A DNA stretch of 64,000 nt, taken from a virus (taxonomy: Duplodnaviria; Heunggongvirae; Uroviricota; Caudoviricetes). The notes under the pieces are model-generated. The model did no database searches and was not told the DNA's origin. It saw nothing but the letters and a program-made list of their open reading frames with translations. A program made the position numbers and the translations under genes. Shown here in pieces: positions 239 through 376 of the stretch (the stretch's first letter is position 1; every line of letters starts with the position of its first letter). The stretch spans positions 1-64,000 of IMG/VR virus record IMGVR_UViG_2799112330_000002; one strand, given 5' to 3'.

Positions 239-376
239 AAAAACTTAATAGTCATAGTTAAAGTTACTTCGATTTTTAGCTCATTTGGTAGAGCATTTGT
301 TTTTGGTACAAAAGGTATTAGGTTCAACTCCTAAAGGATCAATTTAGTTATACTTTACTAGTTTTCTTTAAGTTTT
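239..376 (+). ncRNA. Y-RNA-like element enclosing a tRNA-Gln(TTG)-like module
   Basis: Outer AAAAACTTAA/TTAAGTTTTT stem, TAGTCA-TAGTTAAAGT-TACTTCG, cloverleaf at 271-340, ACTTTACTAG-TTTTCT 3' arm. Confidence 0.75.

Follow-up and report, generated by a model that had tools for sequence, protein, structure and literature searches.

Does the tRNA-Gln-like sequence near the start of the viral contig IMGVR_UViG_2799112330_000002 encode a working tRNA, or is its cloverleaf the head of a different kind of RNA? This 410-kb contig was recovered in a low-GC metagenome bin, and the stretch analyzed here, referred to as the window, comprises its first 64 kb. The element in question occupies positions 239–377 of the + strand, 2 nt downstream of a tRNA-Leu-like gene and 4 nt upstream of a tRNA-Cys gene. 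The initial annotation had described it as a complete tRNA-Gln(TTG)-like cloverleaf nested inside a stem resembling those of Y RNAs, and had suggested that it is an unchargeable mimic and a plausible decoy. We conclude that the element is very probably a partner RNA of the phage-encoded Ro60 protein and not a working tRNA. As to its function, we give roughly even chances to a Ro60-bound, uncharged tRNA mimic that would occupy host tRNA-recognizing enzymes, probably defence nucleases, a reading drawn from sequence data.

The 5′ and 3′ ends of the element pair into a long stem interrupted by a bulge and an internal loop, as is typical of Y RNAs. In the outer helix, positions 239–248 pair with 368–377; the start originally assigned to the element stands, but its end shifts from 376 to 377, which the 3′ strand of this helix reaches. 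The motif TAGTCA (249–254) follows, with a bulged U and with A-U and G-C pairs to 366–367, and then enters an internal loop in which it faces a pyrimidine-rich strand between the two handle helices. The inner helix (255–264 with 352–360) spans about one helical turn and leads into the conserved TACTTC (265–270), which together with the preceding U contains the YUAY motif of YrlA RNAs. On this handle sits a tRNA-shaped head in normal order (271–340), with an acceptor stem of 6 bp that includes two G-U pairs (271–276/335–340), a D arm (279–294), an anticodon arm (296–312), a 5-nt variable loop and a T arm (318–334), so TACTTC runs straight into a 6-bp acceptor followed by three intact arms, just as first described. 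The 7-nt anticodon loop (301–307, anticodon TTG at 303–305) is the same as that of the genuine tRNA-Gln(UUG) of the phage. On the 3′ side the head continues as A73-A74, not C74, and positions 341–377 comprise an 11-nt linker, the 3′ strand of the inner helix, the pyrimidine-rich loop strand and the 3′ strand of the outer helix. ARAGORN called tRNA-Gln(ttg) at 269–343, and the Rfam tRNA model scored 56.8 bits on the element. At E-values up to 1, tRNA was the sole Rfam family to hit the locus; there was no match to YrlB (RF02565), and BLASTN against GenBank phages returned only short, tRNA-level matches.

Folding of the single sequence gave a z-score of only −1.67, with pair probabilities of 0.87–1.0 for nine of the ten outer-helix pairs and ~0.9 for the inner helix. 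The case for a real structure and not a chance complementarity is therefore comparative. Pattern scans identified about 100 handle-plus-tRNA elements in phages; the distinct elements that share the 239–377 layout and have an acceptor of at least 5 bp, found in gut phages, number 63, and their cloverleaves are hereafter called heads. A loose motif scan of viral contigs yielded mostly chance matches. In an alignment of 45 relatives, 95.4% of cells were paired and two-sided changes were found in 31 of 36 pairs, a value reached by none of 500 shuffles, while slid partners gave 40–50%. Supported in this way are the outer helix (96% paired), the bulged-U pairs and the inner helix, and likewise the four stems of the tRNA. 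The flanking stem, whose lack of conservation was one of two observations that would have spoken against the initial annotation, is conserved. The invariance of A, G, T, C and A of TAGTCA in the 45 relatives follows from the search design, and that of TAGTCA, TACTTC, U8, A14, U54, U55 and A58 in general is partly built into the search patterns and was not used alone as evidence. A decaying duplicate tRNA gene with chance complementarity in its AT-rich flanks, which the AT-rich DNA and the low z-score might suggest, is refuted by the covariation in the 45 relatives and has a negligible probability: the 63 relatives are independent in sequence, compensatory changes occur in every helix and the elbow is invariant. 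Contigs from bovine rumen RNA libraries also cover the region, including relatives in which the cloverleaf runs into the handle, and were not counted as evidence; they show no ends, strand or level, DNA may have been present, and two of the sets (X16 and X17) look like one.

Which protein would such a handle bind? On the same strand, 10.8 kb from the element, the open reading frame (ORF) at 11220–12917 (+) encodes a 565-aa homologue of Ro60/Rsr with TROVE and von Willebrand factor A (vWA) domains. PF05731 matched it weakly (26.2 bits) and PHROG 850 with an E-value of 2.7e-26, and the vWA domain carries a MIDAS motif (metal-ion-dependent adhesion site). A sequence search of the PDB with this protein returned nothing and only the fold search matched: the top 12 Foldseek hits of its predicted model were all Ro60 structures (E 5e-13 to 4e-10), for a model with a predicted template modelling score (pTM) of 0.61, TM-scores of 0.3–0.4 and poorly modelled ring geometry. 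Ro60 was encoded in all four near-complete phages found through the RNA motif (47–62% identity). In the reverse test, which started from 35 Ro60 loci found by protein, some of them near duplicates, 28 loci had same-strand handles, 23 of these within 500 nt, and the handles were sense in 114 cases and antisense in 16, against three reversed-pattern matches. At one locus (L115), the 239–377 layout lies 410 nt upstream of Ro60. A homologue of the window's portal protein was not detectable in five near-complete carriers, and therefore the link between RNA and Ro60 is not one of simple shared ancestry; Ro60 protein and handle RNA move as a pair among unrelated phages. The handle is a Y-RNA-type stem, in line with the Y-like stem of the initial annotation, and the linkage of the genes together with the homology of the motifs suggests that it binds the phage's own Ro60.

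The handle motifs point in the same direction. YrlA RNAs are defined by a 5′ GNCGAAN0-1G motif and by a YUAY motif, which stands at the base of their tRNA-like module (PMC4201824). The element has UUAC at 264–267, at the base of its module, and TAGTCA is a putative Ro60 site that may represent a degenerate GNCGAAN0-1G. The 5′ motif varies with Ro60 clade (TAGCAA, TAGTAA, TGGCAA, TGGTGA), with a matching CT to CC change in the partner strand: freshwater phages with 47–52% identical Ro60 use TAGCAA, TAGTAA or TGGCAA, and the phages cr111_1 and csAssE-Sib, with more distant Ro60, use TAGTGA and TGGTGA. TROVE was detected in 9 of 401 Bacteroidales genomes. Several Bacteroidales rsr loci have adjacent RNAs with GCCGTAG, followed 9–10 nt on by TACTTCG, and one has an exact GCCGAAG with a related downstream motif; the Rfam YrlA model scored these rsr-adjacent RNAs at 30–44 bits. 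The graded series from TAGTCA through GCCGTAG to GCCGAAG ties the phage handle, at the level of motif homology, to the GNCGAAN0-1G and YUAY motifs of YrlA-type Y RNAs. On Bacteroidales chromosomes (L322:2880-3400, L323, L326 and L327), one to four RNAs with GCCGTAG … TACTTCG handles and varied heads lie by rsr; scoring below the Rfam YrlA cut-off, they are apparently uncatalogued Bacteroidales Y RNAs.

The handle recurs beside tRNAs, and two different tRNA bodies hold it as an insertion at one and the same D-loop position. It could therefore also be a small ribozyme, self-cleaving or splicing, that would process tRNAs independently of Ro60. Theta ribozymes process tRNAs. However, Rfam returned no ribozyme or intron match in positions 1–600 at E-values up to 1, the fold is a simple stem-loop-stem with no apparent pseudoknot, and the same module closes heads without any tRNA. 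Its sequence moreover follows the Ro60 clade, and it lies 30–500 nt from Ro60 genes. We consider the ribozyme explanation very improbable.

Does the head nevertheless function as a tRNA? To answer this, we set the 63 heads against 432 ordinary tRNAs encoded at these loci. The missing CCA, initially read as the sign of a mimic, is not diagnostic because genuine phage tRNAs are also without it: CCA is encoded in none of the 63 heads, in 24 of the 432 ordinary tRNAs and in none of the 24 tRNAs of the window. Position 74 separates the two groups, as C74 is present in 4 of 63 heads versus 415 of 432 tRNAs, and in all 24 genuine tRNAs of the window. The acceptors of heads are AU-rich (18% GC versus 66%), U33 is retained in 43 of 59 heads (a loss of 27%) versus 409 of 432 tRNAs, and A34 occurs in 11 of 59 versus 14 of 432. 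The heads display 19 anticodons, and in pairs whose remaining sequence is at least 90% identical, the anticodon itself differs in 18 of 32 head pairs versus 4 of 114 tRNA pairs. Copies located directly upstream of tRNA-Cys carry TGT, GGT, GAT, GTT, AAG, a 6-nt loop or TTG. The label tRNA-Gln(TTG) is consequently right about the anticodon called and wrong as a conserved identity, with at least six other loop types at the same site. The closest relatives of this copy are mixed and only 75–80% identical, leaving a Pro-type source of the TTG loop as a candidate only. The element shares with tRNA-Gln(UUG) the cloverleaf, U33 and a YUG anticodon, but lacks the 7-bp acceptor, C74 and an anticodon conserved among orthologues, and a free-standing genuine tRNA-Gln(UUG) at 21916–21990 (+) makes the nested copy redundant for decoding. 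Given the loss of C74, AU-rich acceptors, loss of U33, anticodon turnover and the separate tRNA-Gln, the head is very unlikely to decode. In C74, acceptor composition and anticodon turnover it behaves as the uncharged mimic originally envisaged.

The same comparison bears on a precursor model, in which RNase P and 3′ trimming would release the cloverleaf, CCA would be added and the product would work as tRNA-Gln, its release gated by Ro60. G+1 is invariant in the 63 heads and 55 of them have a 7-bp acceptor, so RNase P may cut the head, though without charging; the shortened acceptor pointed out at first is real in 239–377 (6 bp) but no family trait. RNase P cleaves the YrlA of M. smegmatis, whose acceptor has 7 bp, and this RNA gains CCA (PMC4201824). 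The element also retains U33 and the loop of the real tRNA-Gln, and genuine tRNAs of the phage do without an encoded CCA as well. Against release as a tRNA stand the missing C74, the 6-bp acceptor of this copy, the redundancy at 21916 and anticodons that switch on an unchanged body and would cause mistranslation. A GCT anticodon is found on a body without the long variable arm, which SerRS needs, and acceptors of other handle-plus-tRNA elements are reduced to 1–3 pairs. The precursor model is, in our view, improbable.

What, then, might the head be for? Elbow bases that the search did not require (D-loop GG, G53, C56 and C61) are present in 63 of 63 heads. The anticodon stem is 94% paired and covaries, and its loop has 7 nt in 59 of 63. 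Positions 36–38 read mostly UAA, GG(U/A) or CAA, and G36 and G37 changed together five times on the tree; UAA and GG(U/A) at these positions are contexts for t6A37 and m1G37. Steps on the tree number 14 at position 34 and 16 at position 35, the fastest column. Head loops equal a genuine tRNA loop in 26 of 59 cases versus 17.7 expected (p ~0.002, the samples not being independent). The conserved elbow and anticodon arm, beside the fast positions 34 and 35, fit a protein that would recognize the shape of a tRNA together with the 3′ part of its loop, with the coding letters left free.

In the mechanism we propose, the RNA would be transcribed within the tRNA operon and freed by the processing of its neighbors, as its position suggests. 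Its ends pair into the two-helix handle, as seen from covariation, and the handle would bind the Ro60 ring encoded by the phage. Because the handle replaces the acceptor end, the RNA would be neither charged nor used in decoding, a step for which the evolutionary record argues strongly. It would display a native tRNA elbow and anticodon arm and, stabilized by Ro60, could occupy host readers of tRNA shape, such as tRNA-cleaving defence nucleases, either as a competitive inhibitor or as bait, different copies presenting different parts of a tRNA. YrlA has been proposed to inhibit an anticodon nuclease competitively (Hughes et al. 2020, PMC7790460). A bolder version is doubtful: that phages of Bacteroidota deploy a Ro60-displayed panel of uncharged full-length tRNA decoys against anticodon-specific defence nucleases, that selection or the copying of real tRNAs has made the anticodon loops of these decoys diverse, that the phage RtcB possibly recycles them, and that they have spread horizontally among unrelated phages. 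If true, it would amount to an RNA-based counter-defence disseminated by horizontal transfer.

Several observations weigh against a Ro60-bound tRNA mimic. The distance to Ro60 exceeds the 4 kb typical of YrlA, and seven Ro60 loci have no handle within the sequence surveyed. With respect to YrlA itself, GTCATAG departs from GNCGAAN0-1G at two of six specified positions, and the best overlap with the Rfam YrlA model, a non-specific tRNA-junction match, scores 19.7 bits, short of the gathering score of 69 bits. About eight losses of U33, together with several head anticodons that have no counterpart among usual bacterial tRNAs, would make for poor mimicry of a nuclease substrate. Other free stem and loop sites reach 13–15 steps, and relaxed constraint therefore explains the anticodon turnover as well as selection for variety does; the step counts on the tree did not demonstrate diversifying selection at the anticodon. 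Finally, the YrlA of Salmonella was not cleaved by the tRNA nuclease, and some siblings of the element have no anticodon arm or no tRNA domain at all.

Much of this would also suit the same Y RNA with its head serving as a tether or shield, whereby Ro60 and RNA recruit or dampen host PNPase in a RYPER-like manner, the tRNA fold would protect the RNA and the anticodon simply drifts. Yrn1 of Deinococcus radiodurans tethers Rsr to PNPase (PMC4201824), and Ro60 of the Thermus phage phiLo binds and attenuates host PNPase in vitro together with its Yrl RNAs (PMC12135203). Heads are interchangeable within one genome, down to none, and both the rate of anticodon change and the loss of U33 are compatible with drift. 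A shield, however, needs no 5-bp stem and 7-nt loop, kept in 59 of 63 heads while the adjacent linker varies over ~8 nt, and drift sits poorly with the coupled G36–G37 changes and the excess of genuine tRNA loops. We therefore rate a tether or shield, the main alternative, as possible but rather unlikely.

The YrlA RNAs that partner Rsr/Ro60 (RF02553; PMC4201824; Wang et al. 2018, 10.1101/312249) are among the known systems closest to the element. The two share a long stem of 5′ and 3′ ends, a 5′ motif, YUAY, a tRNA-like head with an intact elbow and no free CCA end, several same-strand copies near Ro60 and occurrence in phages. YrlA is, however, permuted (T arm, looped acceptor, D arm) and has no anticodon loop, an order found here only in the sibling at 458–582, while the 239–377 head has the normal order and a full anticodon arm, its handle takes the place of the acceptor end, TAGTCA stands in for GNCGAAN0-1G and the Rfam score is below cut-off. 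Because it departs in motif, topology and score, the element is not YrlA; it is best described, on sequence grounds, as a bacterial or phage Y RNA with Yrn1-like order and an intact anticodon arm, homologous to the YrlA handle. In Yrn1 of D. radiodurans (PMC4201824), a stem-loop lies between D and T arms at the position of the anticodon arm, and the Rsr stem extends from the acceptor side; Yrn1 and Yrn2 are also co-transcribed with a tRNA (PMC4201824), reminiscent of the array setting of 239–377. Yrn1 differs in that a complete D arm is not evident, the loop has 6 nt, a variable arm is missing and the Ro site is of the metazoan type, whereas in 239–377 the cloverleaf is canonical, tRNA finders accept it as tRNA and the anticodons are interchangeable. 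The phiLo system (PMC12135203; PDB 9KOP, 9L5Y) likewise pairs a phage Ro60, the best structural match of the 11220–12917 protein, with its own stem-bulge-stem RNAs, Yrl1 and Yrl2, but differs in its CGAA motif, the number of RNAs (two), the absence of a reported tRNA cloverleaf and a Ro60 identity of 16–18%. Phage tRNAs that evade PARIS or a retron (cited in PMC13692257) are tRNA-shaped RNAs proposed to counter tRNA-cleaving immunity; those are charged, cleavage-resistant replacements, whereas 239–377 is unable to substitute for a tRNA, which leaves it only the role of bait or inhibitor. The literature searched contained no description of this Y RNA layout, although a mention in reviews is possible.

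The role of the tRNA-like head in bacterial Y RNAs is an open question, for which these phages offer a natural series on one handle: no head, a permuted head, a full cloverleaf and a D-loop graft, in hundreds of variants. Handle and head can therefore be tested separately, and because the anticodon arm of this Y RNA is complete, the idea of a competitive inhibitor of anticodon nucleases becomes directly testable. There is also a consequence for annotation. Since tRNA finders label these RNAs as tRNAs, phage tRNA counts and codon-compensation analyses would be distorted. In GenBank, the “tRNA-Gln” of the crAss-like phage cr111_1 (MT774387; L310:3508-3583) and the “tRNA-Tyr” and “tRNA-Lys” of csAssE-Sib (OR575929; L311:3618-3690 and 3763-3836) are handle-enclosed elements with the 239–377 layout just upstream of Ro60; from their sequences, these labels are probable misannotations.

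The 410-kb contig carries eight handles, seven of them intact and one truncated at 1–87; all seven intact motif matches lie in tRNA arrays on the + (Ro60) strand and none elsewhere on the contig. The truncated copy (1–87, +), cut at its 5′ end by the contig start, has a GCT anticodon and a short variable loop. As the initial annotation stated, its layout is that of 239–377: the 3′ half is the same, and its near-identical complete relatives L147 and L152 agree. A tRNA-Leu(GAG)-like body (97–236, +) and a tRNA-Asp(GTC)-like body (23645–23790, +) each contain a permuted handle at the same position of the D-loop (~113–178 in the former). Both have free acceptor ends with C74 and may therefore be chargeable, Ro60-tethered tRNAs; 5′ halves similar to theirs occur in L222, L264 and L265. 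The YrlA-topology sibling (458–582, +) consists of handle, T arm, looped acceptor stem and D arm without an anticodon arm. In its closing loop, G-CCA follows the acceptor of 7 bp, an arrangement conserved in L122, L143, L147, L183, L194 and L237, so a single RNase P cut could yield a CCA-ended split RNA, by analogy with the M. smegmatis YrlA. Another sibling (17352–17441, +) has a small hairpin head and no tRNA domain, resembling YrlB or Yrn2, and a further one (23491–23642, +) has a permuted tRNA head that keeps its anticodon arm (TGT), with the handle at the position of the variable arm. Elsewhere, in the 166-kb phage L021 (IMGVR_UViG_3300013830_000002), five or more handles lie no farther than 4 kb from the Ro60 gene; this phage also encodes a tRNA with a CTA anticodon and contains many in-frame TAG codons, and is probably recoded. 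In the relatives L260 and L261 a gene resembling that of translation initiation factor IF-1 (PF01176) directly follows Ro60.

That the contig belongs to a jumbo phage is shown by genes for portal, terminase and head closure in the window, along with about 30 for tRNAs and one for a transfer-messenger RNA (tmRNA). The contig makes up more than one fifth of its bacterial bin, to which it was probably misassigned. The contig end (~408.6–410.1 kb) is another tRNA array with one of the eight handles, whose head is a plain hairpin like that of 17352–17441; the genome may therefore form a circle, the window start marking a gap. The host probably belongs to the Bacteroidota, judging from the tmRNA tag, which we take to point to this phylum, from crAss-like relatives and from an excess of TAnnTTTG on the contig (801 versus 473). 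Sequencing runs containing the region come mostly from bovine rumen. No sigma-70-type promoter or terminator was found on the + strand of 1–1850, and no CCA-adding enzyme on the phage contig. An RtcB RNA ligase (43964–45280, +; PF01139, 165 bits) is a possible repair partner; RtcB usually shares an operon with Rsr and Y RNA.

The tRNA arrays of the window show further irregularities. Group I-like introns without ORFs split the anticodon arms of four tRNA genes (4697–4988, 5101–5565, 17055–17348 and ~18830–19110); a score of 46.6 bits against Rfam Intron_gpI was obtained for one of these introns. A tandem tRNA pair with enlarged D-loops (18549–18732) was wrongly labelled Asn and Val by ARAGORN; the anticodon loops read CTT and TTT (Lys). 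ARAGORN overlooked a tRNA-like gene with a CTA anticodon at 23819–23892, near which lies an ORF with an internal TAG (24530–24830). Finally, a tRNA-like RNA at 1532–1611 carries a CTGATAA loop before a D-like arm, that is, in swapped arm order, and has relatives in both RNA and DNA contigs.
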